Origin: a virus
Virus record (IMG/VR): IMGVR_UViG_3300035338_000016
Location: 14,784 to 78,783 of that record
Direction: 5' to 3' (one strand)
DNA: 64,000 nt
Shown one piece after another: positions 5,214-19,877 of this stretch; position 1 is the stretch's first letter, and every line of letters begins with the position of its first letter. The notes below the pieces were generated by a model. The model worked only from the letters and a program-made list of their open reading frames with translations. It was not told the DNA's origin and did not search any database. The position numbers were made by a program, and so were the translations under genes.

Positions 5214-6152
5214 TTATTCTCTTTCTAGTACCTCTTTGATCCCTTTAAAGAACCACTTTATTACTTCTATAGTCCAACCGTCGCCACACATATTGTAAAT
5301 ATGACCTTTTGCAACATTCATTTTGTACCAATTAGGAACGGTTTGTAATTTCCGATATTCATTTTCAGTTAATTTTCTACATATATTCTTTTTAATGTCG
5401 TACACTTTCTTTTGATGGTTGCCTCCCCGGCAAGATGTTAATGTAGCACATTTAAATTTAGGATTATTTACTCGTTTTAATATGTCATGACCATTAATAT
5501 GTAATGTGGCACAAACCTTTTTATCTAGTCCATGAAAGTCAAAATCTTGATTATAGTAATATGTATCATCAACATTTGTGTCTAAGATATCTTCCAGCAC
5601 TAAACTATTTTCTGTTGGAATAGTTTTGTAATCATATTCGATGTTTGTCCAATATAATCTTGATCTGTCACAAGCAGAAAATAAATTACTATCAATATGT
5701 ACCCATTCATCGCCAAGTCTATTACTAACTATTTCTCTATCTTCGGCATTCATACCATCTACGTTTTCACATAGATACAATACATTTGGATTATTATTTA
5801 CTTTTATCCAATCCAAAATATCTGCACAAGGATAAAATAACCATGATGCATTACCTTTTAAACCTTCGTCATAACCTTTTCTTCCTTTTACAGCTTTAGA
5901 GTTATTCCTACATGGAAATCCAAACAATACTAAATCAATTTTAGGCAAACCTTTTAACCACTCATCATTCTCATATAAATCTAATAAACTGCCACATTGA
6001 ATTGTATCTGGGAAGTTATCTTGTGTTACTTGGATTGCTTTATCATATATTTCACTTGCGTAATATTTTTCAATTGGAATATCTAATTCAGTCAAAGCAA
6101 TCTGACCACAACTCATACCATCACATAAGCTTAATATATTTAATTTTCTCAT
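5214..6152 (-). CDS. C5-cytosine DNA methyltransferase, canonical motif order
   Basis: Motif I LSLCDGMSCG, IV GFPC, VI ENV, VIII DRSRLYW, X GDGW. Confidence 0.95.
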   Translation of the reverse strand: MRKLNILSLCDGMSCGQIALTELDIPIEKYYASEIYDKAIQVTQDNFPDTIQCGSLLDLYENDEWLKGLPKIDLVLFGFPCRNNSKAVKGRKGYDEGLKGNASWLFYPCADILDWIKVNNNPNVLYLCENVDGMNAEDREIVSNRLGDEWVHIDSNLFSACDRSRLYWTNIEYDYKTIPTENSLVLEDILDTNVDDTYYYNQDFDFHGLDKKVCATLHINGHDILKRVNNPKFKCATLTSCRGGNHQKKVYDIKKNICRKLTENEYRKLQTVPNWYKMNVAKGHIYNMCGDGWTIEVIKWFFKGIKEVLERE

Positions 6153-6159
6153 TCATTTT

Positions 6160-6204
6160 TAGGAGTCACTTAAGTTTTATGTCCGGACAACTCGTTTCCT
6201 CCTA
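6160..6204 (-). promoter_or_regulatory. Twin-palindrome leader element upstream of MTase 1
   Basis: TAGGAG/CTCCTA inverted repeat enclosing the palindromes TGTCCGGACA and ACTTAAGT. Confidence 0.6.
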
Positions 6205-6234
6205 TATATTCTTTTATCGTTAAATAACTATAAA

Positions 6235-7188
6235 TTAATACTTCCAGTCTTCATTTCTTAAATCGAAAGCGTCTCCCATTTGCTGAATGTCTGGATAATT
6301 TTTGTTTGCTATTGCCTTTGCCCATTTATCAATTTCATAAGCTCTATATGTAATATTCGTATAACCTAATTGATCTAAAACATATCTGCCAGTACCAATT
6401 CCGTCATACAATGATAAGACTTCAATAGGATAATCTTTGGGAATATTAATATGGGATAAGATATGAATAATTACATTTGCAACCCAACCATTACCAGAGC
6501 ATTCGTATCTCCATTTATTAGGGACTTCAATTTCAGCACCATTATCATCAATACCATATTGGGTATACCCTACAGGCATTGTAAATAATCTTTCTACTTC
6601 TTCTGGCGTTAGCTGTCTTAAATAACCGTTTTGGTTCTCATAAACTTTTCTTGGATCAGTTTTCCACAATTCTTTTTGATATTCAGGTGTACAATTTTCA
6701 AATACGGCTTGTCCCATTGACTTACCAAAATATCTACGTCTTAAATAATCTTGACTTCCTTGGAAACCAGCATATCTTCTAGCTATGCATAATGATTTTT
6801 CTCTATCCACACATCCACTCTCTAAACAATCTTGTAATTTGATTTCTAATTCTTTTGGTTGTTGTACTCCTGGAATATTAAACCAATATACTCTTTTTCT
6901 GCTTTGACCGCTTACTAAAGCAGCATCAATCATCATGTATGGAACTCCTAGATGCTTACTTACTTCATCCTTAACAGATTGAGAAATTGAGTGGTTGTTT
7001 TCTACCATAAAATAATCTGGTTTGAATTTTTCTTTTGCAATAACACCGTTTAAAAATAATTCCCATCCCTCACCGCTATTTGGTTCTACTTCTCTATTCT
7101 CTGTCTTTTGACATACACTAAATTTAGTACAAGGGAAACCAAAAATTAATAGTCTTAAAGGTCTTCCATTTAATTCTTCTACATTCAT
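6235..7188 (-). CDS. Circularly permuted C5-cytosine DNA methyltransferase (motif order IV-VI-VIII-TRD-IX-X-I-II-III)
   Basis: GFPC near the N-terminus, then ENN, QSRKRVYW, RQLTPEEVERL, GNGW; LSLYDGIGTG, EID and GDAFD at the C-terminus. Confidence 0.9.
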   Translation of the reverse strand: MNVEELNGRPLRLLIFGFPCTKFSVCQKTENREVEPNSGEGWELFLNGVIAKEKFKPDYFMVENNHSISQSVKDEVSKHLGVPYMMIDAALVSGQSRKRVYWFNIPGVQQPKELEIKLQDCLESGCVDREKSLCIARRYAGFQGSQDYLRRRYFGKSMGQAVFENCTPEYQKELWKTDPRKVYENQNGYLRQLTPEEVERLFTMPVGYTQYGIDDNGAEIEVPNKWRYECSGNGWVANVIIHILSHINIPKDYPIEVLSLYDGIGTGRYVLDQLGYTNITYRAYEIDKWAKAIANKNYPDIQQMGDAFDLRNEDWKY

Positions 7189-7871: not shown

Positions 7872-10235
7872 CTATGCTATGTCCTTTAATCTATTTTTGT
7901 TTTCAAGAAGAAATCCTCTCAAAAATGTTTGTTTGGTCTTTACTTCTTTTGTTTGAATTGCTTTTGTGATTGCATAACTATTTCCTACTAACACACAATA
8001 TCTTTTAGCTCTAGTGATAGCTGTATATAATAATTCAGAATTGTTCATGATGTAGCTGCTACTATCAATCCCTACAATAGTAGATGCAAATCCACTACCT
8101 TGCATCTTGTGAACTGTACAAGCATAAGCCAACTCTAATTTTTTAGATTCTTTCTTATTAAATACCACTTCTCCAATGCCAATAAAATCAATTGTGCAAT
8201 AACCATCATCTGAAATATCTTTTACGATTCCAATATTTCCATTGAATACAGGTGTAATTTCACCTTCCGTATTTGTACACTTATAATTATTTTTTGTATT
8301 TAAAACCTTATCTCCAACTCGTATAATGTATTTCTTTGTATCTTCATTTTTCTTTTCTAAAAATATTTCTAATTCATTGCCTTCTGTGAATTTTGGATTA
8401 TACAAAGCTTGAATTTTAGTATTTAGGTTATAACAAGATAATTCTCCACGAAGTCGCATTGGAACGCATACTTGCACTTCAATTATGTCATTGTATTTTT
8501 CAATTTCCCTTTGAAAATGAGTCATTATTGATTCTACTAGAGTCTCTTTATCGGTTTTATTATCTGAAATATCTAATTCCATATCTTCTAATTCACCTAA
8601 AATTTCATGTCCAGTAAAATTATTAGAAAATATTAATTCTTGGTTTGCAATTTTAATTGATGTAGGAATAATTCCACTTCTCAATGCCTGTCTATGTGGT
8701 TTGGTCAATCGTACAACTGGTAATACTTCACTATCCAAAATATCAGCAAAAACTTGACAATTTCCAATAGGTGTTAGCTGTTGAACATCTCCCATAATAA
8801 TTACCTTTGCTCCTGTTGGTATAGCTTCTAATAATGAAAGGAACAATGTACCATTTATCATAGTTGCTTCGTCAATCAGTACAATATCGACAGCTAATTT
8901 ATTATATTTATTAAAGTCAAAACTACCGTTCATATATTGCAAAGCTCTATGAATTGTACAAGCTGGCAACCCCGTAGCTTCTGTAATTCTTACACTGGCT
9001 TTACCCGATAACGCACATGCTAAAATACTATAATCTTCATACAATGAACAAATGCCATTTGCGGTCGTGGTTTTGCCACAACCGGCATCGCCCGTGATAG
9101 CAATAACATAATTATCAAGACTTAATTTAATAGCACCCCTTTGCTCATCTGTGAAAGGAAAACTTTGATTGTCCTCAACCTTTGTAACAATATCTTCCCA
9201 ATTGCAAATATTAAAAGACTTAGGAATATAATCTTGATGTAAATCATTTTCTAATGAATCATCATCTTCTTCATTACTTTCAATTATTTTGATGTTTCCT
9301 ATTTGTAATCGCATTAACTCTTTCATAATATTTTCTTCAAGTTCATAAAATTTTCGTAAAGCAATTTTATTACCATTATCAACTACCACAACATCTTTAT
9401 GATCTACCATTAATTTAGCCGTTGTATTTACTACTTCTTCTGGAACAAATCCAAGAGTGTCATATAGTGATTGCATTAATTCTTGATATGTAAGATAACT
9501 TTTACCTGCTTCACCTTGTTCATTTAAATGATGCAACAAGAATCCTTTAATTCTACGAATATCATATTGACCAATTCCAACCTTACAGGCTACCTCATCA
9601 GCTTTTTTAAAACCAACACCATCCACTCTTACTAAATCATATGGATTGTTTCTTACTACATCTATCACCGTATCAGGAGAATTATAAAACTCAACTAATT
9701 TTTTAATAAAAGTATGAGTCAATCCAAGTTGACCTAGTTCCATATAAATTGAACTATAATCCTTTGCTTCTTCATATTCATCAATCATTTTCAAAGCTAC
9801 TTGATTTCCTATTCCTTTTATCTCCATTAAAGACTTTACATCTCTATCTTCTAAGAGTTTCAAAACATCTTCGTATTTATCAAATAGCTTTTCTACCAGA
9901 TTTTCATTTAATATATTCTTCAGAAACTCTTTTTGTTTATCCTTACTTGAAATATCAATACACTTACTCATATATAAGATTTCATAAGTGTCACCATAAA
10001 TTTCATGAGTATCTACTACACGACCGTACATTTTGTAAGTTGTACCATAATCAAGTTTACAAACATTTCCTTTGTATTTTATTGTTTCAAGTTCTTCACA
10101 ATTTTCTATTGGTTTTACAATTCTTGCACTAAATATTGCAAACTCCCCTGATTCAACACTCTTGGAATATTTAGGAAATACAATTCTTTCTAAAACTACC
10201 TCTGCTTTTACAATCTTTTCTTCTTCCAATATCAC
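7872..10235 (-). CDS. recD2: RecD2-like SF1B DNA helicase
   Basis: NPYDLVRVDGVGFKKAD HhH region, Walker A GDAGCGKTT, DEATM, LAYACTVHKMQGS. Confidence 0.9.
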   Translation of the reverse strand: MILEEEKIVKAEVVLERIVFPKYSKSVESGEFAIFSARIVKPIENCEELETIKYKGNVCKLDYGTTYKMYGRVVDTHEIYGDTYEILYMSKCIDISSKDKQKEFLKNILNENLVEKLFDKYEDVLKLLEDRDVKSLMEIKGIGNQVALKMIDEYEEAKDYSSIYMELGQLGLTHTFIKKLVEFYNSPDTVIDVVRNNPYDLVRVDGVGFKKADEVACKVGIGQYDIRRIKGFLLHHLNEQGEAGKSYLTYQELMQSLYDTLGFVPEEVVNTTAKLMVDHKDVVVVDNGNKIALRKFYELEENIMKELMRLQIGNIKIIESNEEDDDSLENDLHQDYIPKSFNICNWEDIVTKVEDNQSFPFTDEQRGAIKLSLDNYVIAITGDAGCGKTTTANGICSLYEDYSILACALSGKASVRITEATGLPACTIHRALQYMNGSFDFNKYNKLAVDIVLIDEATMINGTLFLSLLEAIPTGAKVIIMGDVQQLTPIGNCQVFADILDSEVLPVVRLTKPHRQALRSGIIPTSIKIANQELIFSNNFTGHEILGELEDMELDISDNKTDKETLVESIMTHFQREIEKYNDIIEVQVCVPMRLRGELSCYNLNTKIQALYNPKFTEGNELEIFLEKKNEDTKKYIIRVGDKVLNTKNNYKCTNTEGEITPVFNGNIGIVKDISDDGYCTIDFIGIGEVVFNKKESKKLELAYACTVHKMQGSGFASTIVGIDSSSYIMNNSELLYTAITRAKRYCVLVGNSYAITKAIQTKEVKTKQTFLRGFLLENKNRLKDIA

Positions 10236-12811
10236 ACCTCACTATCGTGAATTAAAGATTTACCCTTTGTATAGTTTCTACTTATAATTTCATATTGTGT
10301 AATAACGTCATATTCTTTATCAATATCGGCGGCTAAGATATTAATACCCTTATCATCTTTACCAATTATCTTTTGACCAAATATTTTCTCTGACTTAATA
10401 ACGTCAATTATATCTCCATCTTGTAGAGGTAAAATTTTATAAACCTCCTTCTTTACTTTTCTATATTGAATTTCACCTGATTTCATATTGTAAATAATAA
10501 TATTTGGTGCTATAACATCTCTGGTGTTTAACACAAACCAACGATTGTCATTCAACTCACCATCTATAAATCTAACTTCATTAAATTTTGATACTTGCAT
10601 AGCCATTATTTCATATGGATCAATGTGATTATTCTCAATAGTTTCAAATATTTCTAATAATGCTTTGTGGGAATCGAAGTTATTATAGGATTTTCCTGTT
10701 TTAGATAATTCAGAATTGTTTTTAATTATAGATTTGATGGAGTCATCAGATATTTTCTTGTCAAGATTAGTGACAGTGATTTTATCTTTTCCATATAATA
10801 AGTTAAAATAATCTCGAAACGTTAAAAGTTTTTGGGTTTTTCCATATGCTCCACAACAATCAGCAATGATATAACCTTCTAAAACTTTTTTAGTAATTTT
10901 ATTTTCTAAACATTTTTCCAAAAATTCATAGAAATTTTGACTTTCACACATGCACTTGAATAGAATCTCAGGAATTTCGTCTATTTTTTCAATGTCCTTC
11001 TCCGTGAATTGTCTAATTCTTTCTTTAGCTGCATCTATGTAATACTGCCTATCAAGATATTCTGGAACTTCAACATTATTAATGTCATCGTTGTTTATAA
11101 AACATTTATCTGGTGTGTAAGCTACTTTCTCAAAACTTTTTTGTCCTTTTTCAATCTTTACTTTGTAAATACCTTTGTCTTCTGATCTGTTTGAAGCGAA
11201 TACTCTATGTACTTTTTCTTTTAATGGCGTTCCATCTTCCACAAAAATTTTATCTTTGCCATCCACTTTTACTTTCTTACCTTCACCATATACTACCCCT
11301 TTGTACAAGGCTGTAAGCTTAATTACTTTTTGAAATTCAATCAATTTATCAGCTTGATTTATAGTATCTTCCACGGGGATGTCATGAACAAAATAATTAA
11401 CTAATGCTTTGTTTAGTATTGGAAGATCATAGTCAATTTCTGATAATTCTTTTACATATGCTCCCTTACATTTATAATGTCTATCTTCTAAGTCAATCAA
11501 AAGATAATTATTTACATCTTTTTGAACTAATCTGCCGTGTTTGTAAACATCAAACTCCAACTCTAATTTTGTTCTATTTTCCCATTCTTTAGATATAGCT
11601 TTAACTTTATCTACATCTTCCATAGTTTTGACTCTAACATAAATGCCATCTGTATTTATCTGTAAGATTTCACACATATCTTCTAATCGAGCAGCTAATT
11701 CAGTTAAATATAGTTGACCTGCAATACACACATTGTTACTCTGTACTGGATCATAGCATGGAGAGTTTCTATCTTTTAAAATTCCATAGGTACTATTAAT
11801 TACGATTTTTAATGGTTGTTGTCTTTTGTCTTTTATCTTTTTTAATTCTAATCGTCTGTCTCTCATGTTCTCAAAGTCTTTAGGATTTTTAAGTTTTCTA
11901 CTAGAAAAGCCTTCGTTAATCATTAAAGATGGATATAGACTAGCAACATCGGCTGCTACTAAAATTCCTTCAAAAATTTCATTATCTTTACTACCATGTA
12001 ATCCCCCATAACCATATACGCAAGGAACTCCCCCTACTTTAGTAATTAACTGACGTGTACTGTTACTATCAACTTCTGTTTTTAATGGTAATTTATAACT
12101 TTTATTCTCAGGTTTTAAGTACCAATCAACAATATATTGGTATTTTTCTGGCATTCTTAAATTAGAAGGTATGGTAATTTCAAACTCATCGTCAATTGTA
12201 TGTTGTTCAATTGCTCCTAATATAGTAGCTGCTAATTGGGCTTTTGTTTTATTGAACATTTCCATATCTAAGTTAAACATTGAAATCATATCTAATTGAG
12301 CTTCAAATTCTTTAATTGTAGAATCCAAAGTTTTCAATGTTTCTTTTACGTCATGTATGTTATATTCTTTAATTTGACGAATTTCGTCTCCTGTCAATTT
12401 ACGTTCAATATCAAATGGAACATCTGTTTCTTTGATCATATCTCCCATAAAGGCTTCAAGCTGTTTCAAAGACTTATCTTTAAGGATTACATCATAATTA
12501 TTTAAATGATATTTCTTAGCATTTTTTACAACTTGAAATCCTTTTTTCCCACTCATGATTAATTCATCATTTATGTAAGATGGATTCATACCATCTAAAA
12601 TTCCTTTGAATAAAAATTGATCATACTGTCTACTGTTATATCCTACAAAAATAGCATCTTTATGTTGATTGTAAAAATCTATTAATTCTTGTCTATTGTT
12701 GATGATGGTAATTGGATTTTCTCTATCTTCTCTATCAATAAATGTTACGCACCACCAATTTATTTTAGAAAACACTTCAAAATCATATCCATAAATCTTT
12801 CTATCAAAAAT
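10232..12811 (-). CDS. Family-B DNA polymerase with a C-terminal DnaE-like extension; probable ATT start at 12811
   Basis: Motifs DVASLYPS, KIVINSTYG and NTDG. ExoI YDFEV lies in frame upstream of the tracked GTG (12775). AGGAGG lies 8 nt before ATT. Confidence 0.85.
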   Translation of the reverse strand: MFDRKIYGYDFEVFSKINWWCVTFIDREDRENPITIINNRQELIDFYNQHKDAIFVGYNSRQYDQFLFKGILDGMNPSYINDELIMSGKKGFQVVKNAKKYHLNNYDVILKDKSLKQLEAFMGDMIKETDVPFDIERKLTGDEIRQIKEYNIHDVKETLKTLDSTIKEFEAQLDMISMFNLDMEMFNKTKAQLAATILGAIEQHTIDDEFEITIPSNLRMPEKYQYIVDWYLKPENKSYKLPLKTEVDSNSTRQLITKVGGVPCVYGYGGLHGSKDNEIFEGILVAADVASLYPSLMINEGFSSRKLKNPKDFENMRDRRLELKKIKDKRQQPLKIVINSTYGILKDRNSPCYDPVQSNNVCIAGQLYLTELAARLEDMCEILQINTDGIYVRVKTMEDVDKVKAISKEWENRTKLELEFDVYKHGRLVQKDVNNYLLIDLEDRHYKCKGAYVKELSEIDYDLPILNKALVNYFVHDIPVEDTINQADKLIEFQKVIKLTALYKGVVYGEGKKVKVDGKDKIFVEDGTPLKEKVHRVFASNRSEDKGIYKVKIEKGQKSFEKVAYTPDKCFINNDDINNVEVPEYLDRQYYIDAAKERIRQFTEKDIEKIDEIPEILFKCMCESQNFYEFLEKCLENKITKKVLEGYIIADCCGAYGKTQKLLTFRDYFNLLYGKDKITVTNLDKKISDDSIKSIIKNNSELSKTGKSYNNFDSHKALLEIFETIENNHIDPYEIMAMQVSKFNEVRFIDGELNDNRWFVLNTRDVIAPNIIIYNMKSGEIQYRKVKKEVYKILPLQDGDIIDVIKSEKIFGQKIIGKDDKGINILAADIDKEYDVITQYEIISRNYTKGKSLIHDSEV

Positions 12812-12829
12812 AAGAGTGACCTCCTTCTT

Positions 12830-14569
12830 TTAAATTCCAAAACCTTGTACTACACTACTTTTTTTGAAAATCCAATCTTCAACTAATATTTGTGAACACT
12901 TATTATTTTTCATATCAATTGAAAATTTCCCTACAATATCAAACTCAATGTTATCTCCACATTCTAATATCTCTTTGTATAAAGCCATTAATGAACTTCC
13001 TTTTGTTTGTTTTACAAATTTTATATTATGGTAGATAAATTCGATTCTATTTTGCTTAGCTCCAATTAGATGTAAATTATATTTATTGCAAGAAACCCCT
13101 TTAATTAAAAACAATGGTTCACTTACGGTGCTCCCCCACACATGATGATATTTAGCTACATTTTTTATGACTTGGTCATGCAATAAATTAGCATCATAAC
13201 TGTTATAAACGTGATATGTTGGCTCATCTATTTTTTCCATAGTAGATAATAATGAAAATAATTTATTTGTATTTTCAAATGGTATCTCACAACCAAACGC
13301 ACCCTCATGACCTTCTACTTTTGTAAATAATCCTGTGTTTTTACACCAGTCATTGAAGTTTACAATTTCACATTTATCATTACCTCTTCCACTACCTTTG
13401 CAAACATCACCTTTTCTTCTCATTAATAAACACGGTCGTTGATACTGATCTGCTAACCTATTTGCAATTAAACCAGTGAAATTACCATCTACGTTATCTC
13501 TTGCGTTACAAACTAAAATTGGAAGCTTATCTAATTCAAACTTAATTATTTCTTCTGATAATACTTCTGCACTTTCTTGTGTTATTTTTTTCTGTTTTCT
13601 ATTTGAAGATTCACAAGATTTCAAAACGTATTCTTGGATAGTCATATTGACAATGCCTTTTCCTTTTACTTTTCTTTCCTTCATTTCATCTGAATTACAC
13701 AAAGCTTCAAACATAAAACATTTTTCTTCGTATTCTCCCAATCGTATTAATGAATTAATCAATGGGCATACATAAAACCCAATACCATTTATTGTTACTT
13801 GGTTATTCATTGAATACATTTGAGCATCTACCAGAACCTTGATTAATTTATTTCTTCCTGTTTTATTAGACATTTGACGCAAACCTTCAAGAACTAAATA
13901 CCTAGTTTGTAAATTTAATAAATCTGCTCTATCTCCAATCATCCCTAAAGCTACTAAATCTAGGTAATCATCGGCATAATTTACGTTGTAATGTTTATCT
14001 AATACTTTAGCAAATTTATATACGATTCCTACTCCGGTCATTGCTTTATCAGTTACTTTACTCGACAACTGATTATTTACAACTGTCGCAGTATTCCCCT
14101 CATTTGAAATCAAATGATGATCTAAGACGATTATATTTTTTCCTTTTGCTATTAATCTGTTACATTCTTTTACATCACCAGAGCCGGCATCTGGAACAAT
14201 TATTAATTTTGCGTCATCTTCTTCCATAAAATCTACAACATCAACCAATCCATGTTCTTTCCCTTTATGTATATAACATCTAATTTCTACTGTTGGTTTG
14301 ATTCTTTTTATGTATTGATACATTAATGCGGCTGATGTATAACCATCGCAGTCACAATCTACTAAAATATCAATAGTATGGTTGCTATCAATATGTGAAA
14401 TTAAAATGTCTCTTGCTTTCTCAATGTTGTCTAATAGTAATTCGCTTTCTGTATTCTTAACTGTTGGATTAAGGAAGGAGTTAATATCTTTAATCCCTTT
14501 CAATCTCAAAATATCTTCTAATTCTGAGCCAAATCTAACAGTACCAAGTAATTCATATTTGAAACCCAT
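12830..14569 (-). CDS. RecJ-like DHH/DHHA1 ssDNA exonuclease (SPbeta YorK-like)
   Basis: DCDCDGYTS, LDHH, DLVALGMIGD, GSGRG and GHEGAFG motifs. Confidence 0.92.
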   Translation of the reverse strand: MGFKYELLGTVRFGSELEDILRLKGIKDINSFLNPTVKNTESELLLDNIEKARDILISHIDSNHTIDILVDCDCDGYTSAALMYQYIKRIKPTVEIRCYIHKGKEHGLVDVVDFMEEDDAKLIIVPDAGSGDVKECNRLIAKGKNIIVLDHHLISNEGNTATVVNNQLSSKVTDKAMTGVGIVYKFAKVLDKHYNVNYADDYLDLVALGMIGDRADLLNLQTRYLVLEGLRQMSNKTGRNKLIKVLVDAQMYSMNNQVTINGIGFYVCPLINSLIRLGEYEEKCFMFEALCNSDEMKERKVKGKGIVNMTIQEYVLKSCESSNRKQKKITQESAEVLSEEIIKFELDKLPILVCNARDNVDGNFTGLIANRLADQYQRPCLLMRRKGDVCKGSGRGNDKCEIVNFNDWCKNTGLFTKVEGHEGAFGCEIPFENTNKLFSLLSTMEKIDEPTYHVYNSYDANLLHDQVIKNVAKYHHVWGSTVSEPLFLIKGVSCNKYNLHLIGAKQNRIEFIYHNIKFVKQTKGSSLMALYKEILECGDNIEFDIVGKFSIDMKNNKCSQILVEDWIFKKSSVVQGFGI

Positions 14570-14584
14570 TTTTACTCCTTCCTA

Positions 14585-15664
14585 TCATCCATTTGTACCA
14601 ACGTATATTTTTTGTTCCATTAATTTAAGCAAAATATCTTTCCCCATATCGGTAGGAGATGCTTTGTATGGTAATAAATTTCCTGAATCCCATAGCACAG
14701 AAACTCTTACGAATGGACTTAATTTATCAATTATTTTTTCTTTTATGTGAGTTGCCCATTTTTTACATTCATCTGAATCTAAAGATTGATATTGTTTATC
14801 AAGAGCAACTATAACTTCCCTTACACCTAACATTAATATCATTCCTTTTTGAAAATCGGTTAAATTACTTCCACATAAAGCAACTGTAAAATTATCATCT
14901 CCAAACATAGTATCTGTTTGAAATACTGATTTTTCAGCTTCCACTAACATAATTTTCTTTTTTTCTTGAATTGCCGTTAAGTTATGATTTAAGCCAAATA
15001 AATTTTGTCCTAACGAATGATTGTAAAATTGTTTTCCTACTTTAAACGGTGTATATTTGCCAAAAAGTTCAATTTCTTCCTCTATCAAGGATCTTCCTCT
15101 TACTCCAATCAATTGATTATTTATGTCAAAGTGAGGAATTATTATTTTTTGTTGCCATGTGGAATATAAAATTTTGTACTTTTTCATTGTTTCAATTGAA
15201 ATACCTTCGTTAATCCAATCTTCCACATATAACTTTTGAAAAATTCTTAATATAGATTCATTGTATAAAATTAATGGTTTTGTTGTTTTTTCTTTTTTTG
15301 TGTTTCGTTTATACTTTCTAATAAAATCCCAATCTGATATTTGTTCCTGTTTACCAAATCCATATTCACAATTATCAATATTTAATTTTATACAAATCCA
15401 ATTAATAGCTTTTGGGAGTTCTGTAGGTTCATACCCTTTATATCCCATTACTACACCGATAACATCTAATTGTCCACATTCCGAATAGCAATGGAAAGAT
15501 TGAGAGTCTTTATAGTAATATAACTTGGGTTTTAATCCATGATGACATACTGTATCAGTTATCCATTGATCATCATCTTCATAATAGAAGGTTGCCCCCA
15601 TCTCTAATAACAATTTTCTTACGTCATCTTCAGAAAGCTTTTCTTTCAATTCTTGGGCGGTCAT
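14585..15664 (-). CDS. DNA primase (Zn-binding plus TOPRIM; YorJ-like)
   Basis: TVCHH...KLYYY...FHCYSECG zinc domain, IIIPHFD, LVEAEKS, IVALDK. Confidence 0.9.
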   Translation of the reverse strand: MTAQELKEKLSEDDVRKLLLEMGATFYYEDDDQWITDTVCHHGLKPKLYYYKDSQSFHCYSECGQLDVIGVVMGYKGYEPTELPKAINWICIKLNIDNCEYGFGKQEQISDWDFIRKYKRNTKKEKTTKPLILYNESILRIFQKLYVEDWINEGISIETMKKYKILYSTWQQKIIIPHFDINNQLIGVRGRSLIEEEIELFGKYTPFKVGKQFYNHSLGQNLFGLNHNLTAIQEKKKIMLVEAEKSVFQTDTMFGDDNFTVALCGSNLTDFQKGMILMLGVREVIVALDKQYQSLDSDECKKWATHIKEKIIDKLSPFVRVSVLWDSGNLLPYKASPTDMGKDILLKLMEQKIYVGTNG

Positions 15665-15675
15665 TTTACACCTCC

Positions 15676-17295
15676 CTACTTAGACAATTCCATTGCTAAA
15701 TCTGCCCCTGATATTTCTAAACTATCATCTTCAATCATTCCTACGTTTCCTACATCATCAATTTGAAATTCAATAATAGTTTTCTCAATGTTGGTAATCA
15801 ACTCAAAGTTATAATCTGTGACAAAACAATCAACTTCTCTCATCGTACCCAAATTAATTTTTGTCCATACGATAATAGTTTTCCATTTACCACCACGATT
15901 TTTAAATATGTAATAAGCCATGTTAGGAACTAACGAACCAAAGTTTCCACTAGATTCTAATATAGGTTTCAACTTTTTTAAATCTTTCTGTGTCACTGGT
16001 AAAGCTAAAACACCATAATCAGCTTTCTCTATGATTGCAGTAGCTCCTTTTAATGCACTAGCATCCTTATTACCATCATCTTTGTATGTATTATTTAACT
16101 GTGTAGACGAACCCAAATAAATATCATACTTATTAGCTGTTCTTTTTAAAGCACAACTAAACAAAAATAAAATTTGATGTGTTGCTAGTTTAACCTTTGT
16201 CTTTTCGTAGTAATATCTATACAATTCTGGGCTATCGTTGATATAATCAAAGAAAGCATATTTAATATTTTGATTGATTACATATTTCTCAATGGTTTCA
16301 TTGATACTATCAATTGTAAAATCAGGCAAGTATTCACCAAATAACAATGAACTTTTCATTATTAATGCTGCTTCACTTAAAACTCTGTCTTCTTCTTCTG
16401 TAATTTCATTCCATTCTTCGATACGATCTTGTTCAATACCACTTATATGAGCCAACAAACAATCCTGAATTTCTTCTTTAGTCAACTCTGTAGATATAAA
16501 TAACACTGGTTCTTTTTCACCAGTAGATATCCATTTGTGGTTTTTCCAATCATACATTCTATCACTAGCTATATTGGCTGCCTCTGCCATCGAATTTCTC
16601 GATTTTCCGCCCCCCGAAATAGAACTTCGTATGAAGAATTTTTTACTTCTCATACCTCTAAATATGGTAGTCATGTATCCAGATTGAAAAGGATATCCAT
16701 ATACATTTTCTTGTTTTCTATGCTCCTCTAATCTATCTTCAATTCCATCACCTATATGAAAAGCATAATTGTCTCCAAATGAATTTTTCCAAGTTGTTTT
16801 AAAATTAATGAATCTATTATTAAATTCTCCTAAAACCTCTTCACTGGTCAATTCATTGAATATTGCTAGTTTAGTTTCATCTGATTCATCATAAATAAAA
16901 CTAATATCCCATTTTAGAAAATCTGAAGCATTTCTGATGATTGAATATTTTCTAACATCATCATAATACTTGCCAACATTCATTGTTTTATCTGATGCCA
17001 TCTTTACAGATTCTTCTATGTACTCCCAGCCATTGTTATTTTTCCAAAGGGAATTTGCTGTTTCAAATTGAGAAATTTCATTTTCTATATCAAGAGGTGT
17101 TATCTTTTCGACTTTCCCTTTTTTTGCTATATTTACGATTGCTCCCCAAATCATCTTGTGAAAATTTTCAGGATAATCATCTACATTGGTTTTATATTTC
17201 TCATCCATGACGAGTCTTGGGTTAATACAATAACACCCAAATAACAAAAATATTGCTTTCTTATCTACTTGTTCACTAAAATTAATGAGTGTCAC
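15676..17295 (-). CDS. DnaB-like replicative helicase (YorI-like)
   Basis: Walker A SISGGGKS, FISTEL, FFDYI, STQLN, IFKNRGG. Confidence 0.88.
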   Translation of the reverse strand: MTLINFSEQVDKKAIFLLFGCYCINPRLVMDEKYKTNVDDYPENFHKMIWGAIVNIAKKGKVEKITPLDIENEISQFETANSLWKNNNGWEYIEESVKMASDKTMNVGKYYDDVRKYSIIRNASDFLKWDISFIYDESDETKLAIFNELTSEEVLGEFNNRFINFKTTWKNSFGDNYAFHIGDGIEDRLEEHRKQENVYGYPFQSGYMTTIFRGMRSKKFFIRSSISGGGKSRNSMAEAANIASDRMYDWKNHKWISTGEKEPVLFISTELTKEEIQDCLLAHISGIEQDRIEEWNEITEEEDRVLSEAALIMKSSLLFGEYLPDFTIDSINETIEKYVINQNIKYAFFDYINDSPELYRYYYEKTKVKLATHQILFLFSCALKRTANKYDIYLGSSTQLNNTYKDDGNKDASALKGATAIIEKADYGVLALPVTQKDLKKLKPILESSGNFGSLVPNMAYYIFKNRGGKWKTIIVWTKINLGTMREVDCFVTDYNFELITNIEKTIIEFQIDDVGNVGMIEDDSLEISGADLAMELSK

Positions 17296-17788
17296 CGTCC
17301 TCTAATAAATTTTCCAAATTAATCAGAGATGAATTAGTATTGTTTAAATTGCTATTACTTTTACGTTTAACTACTTTAGTTTTTATTTCTACATTTTCTA
17401 ATTGCATCATTTGATTTTTTATTTTTTCTTGGTCAGTGTAAAAACTTTTAGCTTCGTTATAGTAATGTTTAATCAAAGCTACTCCATATCTTTCAATGAA
17501 TTGTTTACTTAATATTTCTTTTGCGTACCACAGTGTATATGTCATAGCAGCATATGAGTAAGAATATTCATTTTTATATTCTTTTATTTGTTTCAACATC
17601 AAACCAGTCGGTCTTTCAATTTCATAATTAGTACAAATAAAATCAATTAAAGTCTTATACTCTTCTCCATCTCTATGTATTGAATCATAACAATCTTTAC
17701 AGTATGCTTTTGAAGAATGTACATACTTTTCATCAGGTTGCAATTTCTTACCACAACCTTTACAAGTTGCTAATCTACTCATAGTCAC
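17282..17788 (-). CDS. YorH-like Zn-finger protein (possible helicase loader)
   Basis: CKGC...YCKDC and PTGLMLKQIKEY segments; position between the ATPase and helicase genes as in SPbeta. Confidence 0.7.
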   Translation of the reverse strand: MTMSRLATCKGCGKKLQPDEKYVHSSKAYCKDCYDSIHRDGEEYKTLIDFICTNYEIERPTGLMLKQIKEYKNEYSYSYAAMTYTLWYAKEILSKQFIERYGVALIKHYYNEAKSFYTDQEKIKNQMMQLENVEIKTKVVKRKSNSNLNNTNSSLINLENLLEDGDTH

Positions 17789-17841
17789 CCACTTTTCAAA
17801 ATGAGTAGGAGGAAAACCCTCCTACTACATCAATTAATAAT

Positions 17842-18828
17842 TTACACTACTTTCAAATTAAATTTAGATACCAATTCTTCTAATTCCATTACAATTACTT
17901 TAGTTAGATCTAATTGTGTATCTCTTAAAGCATCAAACATCTTAACGTTGCCGTTATCATCTAATCCTAAATGCTTCTGAAGAACGGCTGTAGCTTCAGC
18001 TAAATGACCATTTGATGCTAATAACCCACCCAATTTAATTCCTTTAGCTTTTACTTCTTCAAAATTTTCAACTGGTGTAGTTTTATCAATAGTTTTTTCA
18101 TTTGTTGTAAAATCTCCACCTAAATCTTTAACTGCTTTAATCCAAGTATCTTTCAATTCTTTAACATTGATTTTTTCAGGAAGATTAAATGTGTCTTTAA
18201 GGTCAGGATACTTGGAAGACTTTTTGAATGTGATATATCTTTCTCCTTTTTCTTCCCATAAATAACCAACTAAATAAGCTGCTTCTCTACAATAAGAAAA
18301 TGTATTCTTATTTAATTTCAAACCGTCTGATTCTTTTTTAGTTTCAAAGTCTTTACTATGAGCAGACTGAGCAATTTCATGAACAGTATAACCAAGACTT
18401 TGAATAGTACCAATATGTCTCAATGACGCTCTGTATCGCTGAGTACCTTCACCAAATGCTCCTACATCTTTCAGGATTTCAGCATCTCTATTTTGAGTAA
18501 CATATCTCTCACAAAATTCTTCATATTTATCAAGAGTATCTACAATAATACAAGAGAACTTTTCTTTCAATGCGGGATTATTAAGCTGTCCAATCACAGA
18601 CATAAAATCTGACATTGTGTTAATTTTAGTTGCCATGATACCGGGGATGTTTTCAAATCTATTTTCAAATTCTAAAAAGAAAGGTTCTTTATTTGGTGTA
18701 AGTTCTTTCAAAAATTTCATCATAGTTGTTGTTTTACCAACACCTGTATCACCCATCCAAATCATTGAATACTGAGTTAAATCGACTGATACTTTATTTG
18801 GCTGTAAATCTAATAAATTTCCAATCAT
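17842..18828 (-). CDS. AAA-family ATPase (YorG/Sak4-like annealing protein)
   Basis: Walker A GDTGVGKTT, Walker B IIVDT. Confidence 0.8.
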   Translation of the reverse strand: MIGNLLDLQPNKVSVDLTQYSMIWMGDTGVGKTTTMMKFLKELTPNKEPFFLEFENRFENIPGIMATKINTMSDFMSVIGQLNNPALKEKFSCIIVDTLDKYEEFCERYVTQNRDAEILKDVGAFGEGTQRYRASLRHIGTIQSLGYTVHEIAQSAHSKDFETKKESDGLKLNKNTFSYCREAAYLVGYLWEEKGERYITFKKSSKYPDLKDTFNLPEKINVKELKDTWIKAVKDLGGDFTTNEKTIDKTTPVENFEEVKAKGIKLGGLLASNGHLAEATAVLQKHLGLDDNGNVKMFDALRDTQLDLTKVIVMELEELVSKFNLKVV

Positions 18829-18870
18829 TAATTAATCTCCTTTGTTGTTTATAGTTTTAATTTATAGTAA

Positions 18871-18896
18871 CCCTATCTGAAATCAATCAGATAGGG
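18871..18896. terminator. 10-bp-stem hairpin between the SSB-like and ATPase genes
   Basis: CCCTATCTGA-AATCAA-TCAGATAGGG. Confidence 0.5.
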
Positions 18897-18920
18897 GGGT
18901 AAATCACTATTACATTGATC

Positions 18921-19877
18921 TTACTTTTGTGCGAATGGATTATATCCTACTGTTGGTGCAGGTGTAGATTTATCAGGTGTAAATGGAGCATCATCAGATG
19001 CAGCTTTTCCACTCATTACTTCTGCTAACTTAGCTTTTCTTTTAGCATTTAACGCATCTACAATTTCCTGAGTCAATTCGTGTTCAAAAATTGTCGATGG
19101 TGTAGTACCAGACTTAATCTCATTTTTTCTTATGTAAGCTTTAACTTCTTTTTCAATATCTGAACCAAATGCTGCTTTTTCAACTACTTTTGTTTTTTCT
19201 ACTGAATTAATAACAGCCCCTACAAATTTAGTAAAACAACCATCATAGTAGCCTGCACTTCTGAATGGGGTAGCCATTTCTTTGTCTACGATCATTCTGA
19301 TAGGAATTAAAGAATCAGCTTCATATTTTGCATCCTTACCAAAACCATCTGCCGTTTGTCTAATCGCCATCATTTTTACTACTAAATTACCAGTTGGAAT
19401 ATCTTTTACGATTTCATCTTTGATAGATTCAATGATACCTTCTACTTCAAATTTCGCTTCTAATACTGTTGAATCATAATCTTTTGGTTCAATTTTGTTG
19501 ATGAATTTAGCTGAAAGCTTATTGATCGTACTTACCTTACTATCTTTGTTCTTATAATCTTCTACTGTGAAATAACCATCTGTAATAGAAATTACATCAG
19601 GTCTTTCCCCTTCCGCACAATGTTCCATGTCTTTTAAATTTTCCATAGCGTCTTTATATTTCTTGTAGAAATAACCTTCTTCGCTAGTAAAGTTTTTATT
19701 TTCATCTTTCTTGTACTTATTAGCAAAGAAATGAATTTCGTGTTCACTACCATCGGCAGTTCTCAACACCAAACTACCACCAATAGCTTCATTGCCATCT
19801 TTTTTTGTTACAAATTCTTCTAAATTCTTTTTTACTAATTCACCAGTTACACTTACTACATTTTTCAATTCTTTCAT
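18921..19877 (-). CDS. YorF-like putative ssDNA-binding protein
   Basis: Beta-rich OB-like repeats, low-complexity tail ending in NPF motif; first gene of the replisome operon. Confidence 0.6.
   Translation of the reverse strand: MKELKNVVSVTGELVKKNLEEFVTKKDGNEAIGGSLVLRTADGSEHEIHFFANKYKKDENKNFTSEEGYFYKKYKDAMENLKDMEHCAEGERPDVISITDGYFTVEDYKNKDSKVSTINKLSAKFINKIEPKDYDSTVLEAKFEVEGIIESIKDEIVKDIPTGNLVVKMMAIRQTADGFGKDAKYEADSLIPIRMIVDKEMATPFRSAGYYDGCFTKFVGAVINSVEKTKVVEKAAFGSDIEKEVKAYIRKNEIKSGTTPSTIFEHELTQEIVDALNAKRKAKLAEVMSGKAASDDAPFTPDKSTPAPTVGYNPFAQK

Follow-up and report, generated by a model that had tools for sequence, protein, structure and literature searches.

The window described here, a stretch of 64,000 nucleotides corresponding to positions 14,784 to 78,783 of the IMG/VR virus record IMGVR_UViG_3300035338_000016 (an SPbeta-like provirus of 127,532 bp), carries at 10232-12811 a DNA polymerase gene whose product is quite probably a natural cross-family hybrid. 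In this reading, a family B (PolB) core is fused to a tail derived from DnaE, the family C enzyme; the fusion was formed by replacement in place within a replication module like that of phage SPbeta; the product is the presumed replicase; and the tail has retained its role. Such a chimera, at the position held by the DnaE gene yorL in SPbeta, had been proposed in a preliminary description made from the sequence alone. Families B and C carry out replicative DNA synthesis with enzymes that share no homology. Neither a domain transfer between them nor a family B core with a family C C-terminal module was found described in the full-text literature searched, including the survey of viral replicases (Kazlauskas et al., 2016; PMC4889955), a negative result that does not prove the hybrid to be undescribed.

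The fusion is not an assembly artefact, because a search with the tail retrieved 507 length-compatible proteins at E<=0.01; among the 120 matches listed, the lengths are 517-875 aa and the tails are 65-100% identical. Homologs are also present in sequenced isolates, namely Kineothrix sp. MB12-C1 and Lacrimispora spp., which makes the idea testable at the bench.

Family B Core

The core (Table 1) matches the PHROGs profile phrog_1252 “DNA polymerase” from residue 3 to 606 of the protein (E 4.3e-138, profile positions 51-655 of 663) and exceeds the cut-off of Pfam DNA_pol_B (PF00136; 26.7 bits vs. 23), while its palm and fingers are matched, among PDB sequences, by archaeal PolB and E. coli Pol II. 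All of the PolB motifs quoted in the preliminary description, as well as the strings quoted from the tail, are found in the translation. The exonuclease motifs are ExoI (D-x-E) as YDFEV at aa 9-13, ExoII (N-x2-3-F/Y-D) as YNSRQYD at aa 58-64, and ExoIII (Y-x3-D) as YNIHD; the polymerase motifs are A (D-x-x-S-L-Y-P) as DVASLYPS at aa 287-294, B (K-x3-N-S-x-Y-G) as KIVINSTYG at aa 335-343, and C (x-T-D) as NTDG at aa 386-389, and the string YYIDAAKERIRQF lies at aa 590-602 (nt 11044-11006). Motifs ExoI, ExoII, and ExoIII are kept in fused and tail-less members alike. In motif C, Asn replaces the first Asp of the classical DTD throughout the phrog_1252 subgroup, and because tail-less members carry NTDG too, this is a family trait and not a defect. 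The AlphaFold2 (AF2) model of the full-length protein has a mean predicted local distance difference test score (pLDDT) of 87.6, about 90 in the tail, and a predicted template modeling score (pTM) of 0.79; in a Foldseek comparison with the PDB, it retrieves the PolB enzymes of the Tgo/KOD/Pfu type and Pol alpha at E 1e-13. Judging from these signatures, the core is a complete and apparently active family B enzyme with both proofreading exonuclease and polymerase. The family C domains PHP, Pol III alpha palm (PF07733), and fingers (PF17657) have no Pfam match in the protein or elsewhere in the provirus record; the window polymerase is not a DnaE.

The nearest relatives among phage records are the polymerases of Paenibacillus phage LincolnB/Wanderer, Staphylococcus phage PI-Sepi-HH2, and Bacillus phage BMBtp15, which are 47-48% identical to the core. 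These proteins have no tail: they are 562-582 aa long and end at residues ~605-612 of the window protein (P0001), which sets the extension at ~250 aa, close to the about 255 residues first proposed. Their genes are located in siphovirus genomes of 35-40 kb, between genes for an NTP-binding protein and a primase, and since the tail-less relatives occupy this other module, the core is of different origin from the SPbeta-like module. In the phage record collection, no record covers >=80% of the window polymerase.

The fused polymerases fall into two core types that are 50-55% identical to each other and only ~40% over palm and fingers. Between the types, the exonuclease end (60-75% identical) and the tails (~70%) are much closer than the middle, and the discordant segment is at aa ~160-480 of the window protein (window ~11372-12334). 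This pattern points to intragenic mosaicism or to strongly uneven rates. A recombination hot spot at the linker was considered and dropped, as the discordance is in the middle of the core and not at the core/tail junction.

The Tail and Its DnaE Relatives

The tail, aa 625-845, has its homologs in the C-terminal regions of a single subgroup of phage DnaE. A tblastn search with residues 595-859 against 50,697 phage records gave five weak matches, the best four of which are at 3′ ends of dnaE genes, and by pairwise BLASTP, tail residues 18-225 align with residues 894-1092 of the 1110-aa DnaE of C. difficile phage LIBA2945 (E 1e-7). A profile of 14 tails (A1) was then searched with hmmsearch against 1.84 billion protein representatives. 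The 94 clusters matched at E<=1e-3 include PolB-tail proteins and fragments, and the profile also matches the extreme C-termini of proteins of 1000-1485 aa with E 3e-15 to 1e-4. When 29 of the matches were scanned with Pfam, 19 had DnaE domains (PHP, DNA_pol3_alpha, finger, HHH_6), some with inteins, two had DNA_pol_B, and none had a domain of any other polymerase family. In the DnaE matches, the similarity starts inside HHH_6, the helix-hairpin-helix (HhH) domain, and continues to the end of the protein. Furthermore, hhalign of A1 with an alignment of 16 DnaE C-termini (A2) gave a probability of 99.8% and E 4.5e-28 over 210 columns, collinear over the HhH half, the helical segment, and the OB (oligonucleotide/oligosaccharide-binding) fold. 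The C-terminal region of NCBIfam models of cellular DnaE is matched by the DnaE-type tail (E 1e-7 and 2e-6), which ties the tail module to bona fide family C enzymes.

Structural comparison leads to the same enzymes. With the AF2 model of the tail alone (pLDDT 77), the best Foldseek match among AFDB clusters is a “DNA polymerase HhH motif domain” protein (E 2.5e-9), and the only significant matches in BFVD are a 1474-aa phage DNA polymerase (E 2.7e-10) and a 299-aa “DNA polymerase III alpha subunit” of Lactococcus phage LW81 (E 1.8e-7). In an exhaustive comparison with the PDB, the longest match is to residues 899-1122 of Taq Pol III alpha (2hpi; Z 6.6, 159 residues, model positions 17-250), whereas the other top matches (PriB, RPA, and SSB; Z 6.6-6.9 with the Taq match included) span the OB barrel only. 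The preliminary description had named a lack of profile or structural similarity to DnaE C-terminal domains as the result that would speak against it, and the opposite is found in both the hhalign comparison and the Foldseek match to a phage DnaE.

As to the composition of the tail, the OB part of the proposed HhH plus OB arrangement stands, seen as an AF2 barrel at aa 757-845 and in the 2hpi and BFVD DnaE matches. Of the HhH domain, no more than the C-terminal half appears to be kept: hhalign pairs tail residues 31-70 with that half, the first hairpin is absent, and Pfam HHH_6 is not detected in the tail even at E 0.1. The linker in front of it has no counterpart in either tail-less PolB or DnaE. 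Scans of the tail alone against Pfam and NCBIfam gave nothing meaningful, nor did a search of PDB sequences with the tail profile; because these searches miss the tail, fused proteins are probably annotated as “hypothetical” or “DNA polymerase.” That blank in Pfam, together with Foldseek against the PDB, where the tail yields only weak generic OB folds (E>0.01), is what could be said for a convergent or generic resemblance, in which the tail would be an ordinary OB-fold domain for DNA binding, not specifically related to DnaE. The chance of this is negligible, since the sequence match is far too significant to be fortuitous and stays collinear through 210 columns, helical part included, and since all non-PolB matches that Pfam could place (the 19 of 29 above) are DnaE, always matched at the C-terminal end.

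The DnaE subgroup with homologous tails comprises those of LIBA2945, Thomasclavelia phage TR-TP1, LW81, and the metagenomic P0146 and P0147. SPbeta YorL is outside this subgroup and matches the HhH part only, with E 0.012-0.016. The motif pattern that the preliminary description gave as SPbeta-type fits the consensus of the LIBA2945/TR-TP1/LW81 subgroup but not YorL itself.

Some further features were met in these proteins. Five cysteines in the linker and the HhH half, at aa 620, 622, 634, 652, and 653 (window ~10853-10954; C-x-C, C, CC), vary little or not at all within the close family and are missing from DnaE tails and from the most divergent fused members; they may form a metal or disulfide site specific to this lineage. 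Phage DnaE genes with this type of tail often carry inteins (LAGLIDADG) or are split by HNH endonuclease genes (P0152, P0166, P0183, P0163, P0187, and L002 4035-8660), and frequent targeting by such mobile elements could promote recombination there. One metagenomic PolB-tail relative (L097, 1-1857) has a lone in-frame TAG in the thumb region, and gene prediction consequently splits off a 262-aa “tail protein”; the TAG could reflect a sequencing error, mark a pseudogene, or serve for read-through. In a contig of 3.3x coverage (L098, 808-4238), a DnaE core of 864 codons and a tail open reading frame overlap in different frames, which may be a natural split, a frameshifted DnaE, or an assembly error. 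Two apparent stand-alone tail proteins were set aside and not used as evidence: P0124 is actually a PolB-tail gene with one in-frame TAG, and P0153 adjoins a DnaE core in another frame in a 3.3x-coverage contig, where a frameshift introduced by assembly is possible.

Probable Replacement in an SPbeta-like Replication Module

The claim that homologs of yorF-G-H-I-J-K precede the polymerase in SPbeta order is confirmed by BLASTP: all six are collinear, with E 1e-10, 4e-15, 2e-22, 7e-100, 2e-75, and 7e-88, respectively, and 25-38% identity to their SPbeta counterparts. For a survey of the gene following yorK homologs, as the preliminary description had suggested, an alignment of YorK was used to fetch 80 loci from IMG/VR, and the polymerase downstream was classified. 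DnaE is found in 58 of the 80, many in the order YorK...DnaE-RecD2, and PolB-tail in nine, whose YorK proteins are >=70% identical to that of the window. A RecD2-like gene follows PolB-tail in all eight loci reaching beyond the polymerase gene. The synteny and this survey uphold the placement in the yorL slot.

Two of the 80 loci (L026 and L034) have neither DnaE nor PolB. In L026 (IMG/VR 2806311071_000002), a 763-aa family A polymerase (PolA) without the tail is encoded at 8203-10494 (PF00476, E 1.7e-42), followed at 10506-11261 by a YorM-like 3D-domain gene; L034, a close relative by YorK, is taken to be the same, giving two PolA loci. Non-orthologous replacement of phage replication genes is well known, and with PolA as the third polymerase family, this replication-module slot is filled by DnaE, PolB, or PolA.

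The comparison of these loci favors a single in-place replacement of the DnaE catalytic region in an SPbeta-like module. The ancestral module would have consisted of yorF-yorK, DnaE, and a RecD2-like helicase; recombination would then have exchanged the 5′ ~2.5 kb of the DnaE gene, encoding PHP, palm, thumb, fingers, and the first HhH, for a PolB gene like those of small siphoviruses, and the 3′ end of the DnaE gene and the downstream helicase gene would have remained in place. The direction and site of recombination are inferred, and displacement in place, as first suggested, has good comparative support. In a tree of YorK, the PolB-linked sequences make up a single clade (support 100) that, with midpoint rooting, falls among clades linked to DnaE. 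Two divergent fused proteins, with tails 42% and 32% identical, share the yorF...yorK/polymerase/RecD2 context, which indicates that the fusion is old and stable. Among those sampled, the DnaE-linked RecD2 nearest to that of the window is from TR-TP1 (33% identity, E 8e-118), and it adjoins a DnaE of the same tail type.

Several observations weigh against this history or its parts, besides the blank Pfam and NCBIfam scans of the tail. C-termini of YorL-type DnaE are only marginal in hhalign (HhH only, E 0.016), and those of the ~1070-1115-aa DnaE of the large gut-phage YorK-DnaE-RecD2 group have no hhalign match to the tail; because both fail the tail profile, the direct DnaE ancestor is unsampled in its full context. 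The closest DnaE tails, P0146 and P0147, sit in other, non-SPbeta gene contexts. PolA holds the slot without the tail, and a tail is consequently no requirement of the slot. The YorK tree is unrooted, with support of 87-88 at deep nodes; the tail, with an isoelectric point (pI) of 5.9, is not basic overall, so that charge gives little support for DNA binding; and the provirus record is 73% complete by CheckV.

Some of these points bear on another order of events, in which the fusion would have arisen elsewhere and the finished hybrid would later have replaced the whole DnaE downstream of yorK, the tail being no remnant in place. The foreign contexts of P0146 and P0147, the unrelated DnaE C-termini of the sampled YorK-DnaE-RecD2 phages, and the whole-gene replacement by PolA in this very slot all fit with it. 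Nevertheless, it is rather unlikely: all 12 PolB-tail loci examined, the most divergent included, are in the yorK/RecD2 context, no PolB-tail was met in the small-siphovirus module or, at the coverage given above, among phage records, and TR-TP1 couples this type of tail with the most similar DnaE-linked RecD2. Replacement in place thus continues to be preferred.

The role as replicase is presumed because the window polymerase is the only recognizable DNA polymerase of the provirus: no DnaE, PolA, or clamp gene was found in the 127,532-bp record. It could instead serve repair or translesion synthesis as an accessory polymerase, or be a gene in decay, with host enzymes replicating the prophage; the incompleteness of the record, outside which another polymerase could lie, and a non-canonical start codon would agree with this. 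That is very improbable in view of the replicase position between exonuclease and helicase genes, the hundreds of intact homologs, and the catalytic motifs, all of which are kept in members down to 44% overall identity.

Possible Roles of the Tail

In E. coli Pol III alpha, the equivalent region (~890-1080) contains a duplex-binding HhH, a clamp-binding site, and an OB fold that binds single-stranded DNA (PMC3384344). By the same logic, the tail may be expected to anchor the PolB core on DNA, on a partner at the fork, or on both: it would do for PolB what it did for DnaE, holding the enzyme at the fork via contacts of HhH with duplex and of OB with single-stranded DNA and/or via a phage replisome partner or the host clamp. 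The pTM of the full-length model and the pLDDT of its tail suggest that the tail packs against the core rather than dangling. The HhH half and the OB fold have a pI of about 8, and no recognizable clamp-binding pentapeptide is found in the tail. Considering the docked model, the overall pI, the missing pentapeptide, and the tail-less PolA in the same slot, a protein partner is at least as likely as DNA, and the RecD2-like helicase, apparently coupled in translation (see below), is an obvious candidate.

It is even conceivable, although somewhat doubtful, that the tail is a portable “replisome socket,” a module binding a conserved partner so that family C or family B cores can be plugged into the same replisome. 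Candidate partners are the co-inherited RecD2-like helicase, the DnaB-type helicase, and the host clamp. If so, the coupling between polymerase and replisome would reside in a ~220-aa module separable from catalysis.

More generally, the HhH/OB region at the C-terminus of DnaE would be separable in evolution and still of use to an unrelated catalytic core, a module able to move between non-homologous replicases. The fused lineage, found widely among prophages of gut Firmicutes, is stable, the context being the same even with tails as little as 32% identical. It provides a natural experiment on what the C-terminal region of the Pol III alpha type contributes apart from the core, a long-unclear question.

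Gene Boundaries and Surrounding Features

The polymerase probably starts at the ATT of Table 1. The first ATG/GTG/TTG in the frame is GTG at 12775, a start at which would remove the D-x-E of ExoI, whereas N-termini of homologs begin 8-20 residues upstream of this motif; the ATT, moreover, follows AAGGAGG. Three relatives (L009 at 7769, L011 and L012 at 8254) open with ATA ATA right behind a TAA stop, and none of ATG, GTG, and TTG occurs ahead of their ExoI motif; other relatives start with ATG or TTG. The upstream DHH gene terminates in the frame of the polymerase, 18 nt before it (window 12809-12832). At the other end, the RecD2-like gene begins with a GTG that overlaps the stop of the polymerase as GTGTGA (10232-10237) with GAGG just upstream, and this arrangement suggests that the two are translationally coupled. 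Further downstream, two adjacent C5 cytosine methyltransferase genes are found at 5214-7188 of the window, downstream of a Gp157-like gene; one of them has only a partial match to the Pfam profile, at positions 64-122.

Table 1. Features of the polymerase gene and its neighborhood (window coordinates).
Feature	Coordinates	Strand	Remarks
RecD2-like SF1 helicase	7872..10235	-	GTG start overlaps the polymerase stop
Whole polymerase gene	10232..12811	-	859 codons and TGA, one stop-free frame
Tail part 3, aa 757-845	10277..10543	-	OB-like beta-barrel; AF2 models, hhalign, structural Z 6.6-6.9
Tail part 2, aa 666-750	10562..10816	-	Helical segment, common to the phage DnaE subgroup
Tail part 1, aa 625-665	10817..10939	-	Equivalent of the C-terminal half of DnaE HhH (HHH_6, beta-binding); hhalign A1 columns 31-70
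Linker, aa 607-624	10940..10993	-	18 residues; P-x-I-L-F and Cys kept within the fused family
Family B polymerase core, aa 1-606	10994..12811	-	3′-5′ exonuclease (ExoI/II/III), palm, fingers, thumb
Probable polymerase start ATT	12811-12809	-	Ribosome-binding site AAGGAGG at 12826-12820, 8 nt before ATT
YorK-like DHH/RecJ-type exonuclease	12830..14569	-	Immediately upstream of the polymerase; Pfam DHH; 35% identical to SPbeta YorK, E 7e-88
yorJ, yorI (DnaB-type helicase), yorH, yorG (AAA_24), and yorF homologs	14585..19877	-	SPbeta order

Comparison with Known Systems

The DnaE of LIBA2945 (AUO78466.1, 1110 aa), representing the LIBA2945/TR-TP1/LW81 type, has C-terminal ~215 residues homologous to and collinear with the tail, in the gene order helicase-primase-RecJ-polymerase, and in TR-TP1 a RecD-like helicase is directly downstream of DnaE. 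The catalytic part of these enzymes, in contrast, consists of PHP, Pol III alpha palm, fingers, and a full HhH, none of which is in the window protein. SPbeta YorL (NP_046685.1, 1305 aa) occupies the same slot but is a DnaE, and it is YorM that lies downstream in SPbeta where the window has the RecD2-like helicase. The tail-less PolB proteins of phrog_1252 (LincolnB/Wanderer AXF40363.1, PI-Sepi-HH2, and BMBtp15) share NTDG and correspond to the core end to end at the identity given above, stopping where the linker of the window protein begins, in their different replication module and small genomes.

Cellular Pol III alpha (Taq 2hpi, 899-1122) has the same order of elements, the end of the HhH/beta-binding domain and then OB, whereas the window tail has no recognizable clamp-binding pentapeptide and no tau-binding domain and contains an extra helical segment; its similarity to the cellular sequence is transitive only, through phage DnaE. 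Eukaryotic and archaeal PolB also carry C-terminal docking domains that are non-catalytic and thought to couple the polymerase to parts of the replisome. These domains are Cys-rich and metal-binding, unrelated to HhH/OB, and not borrowed from family C.

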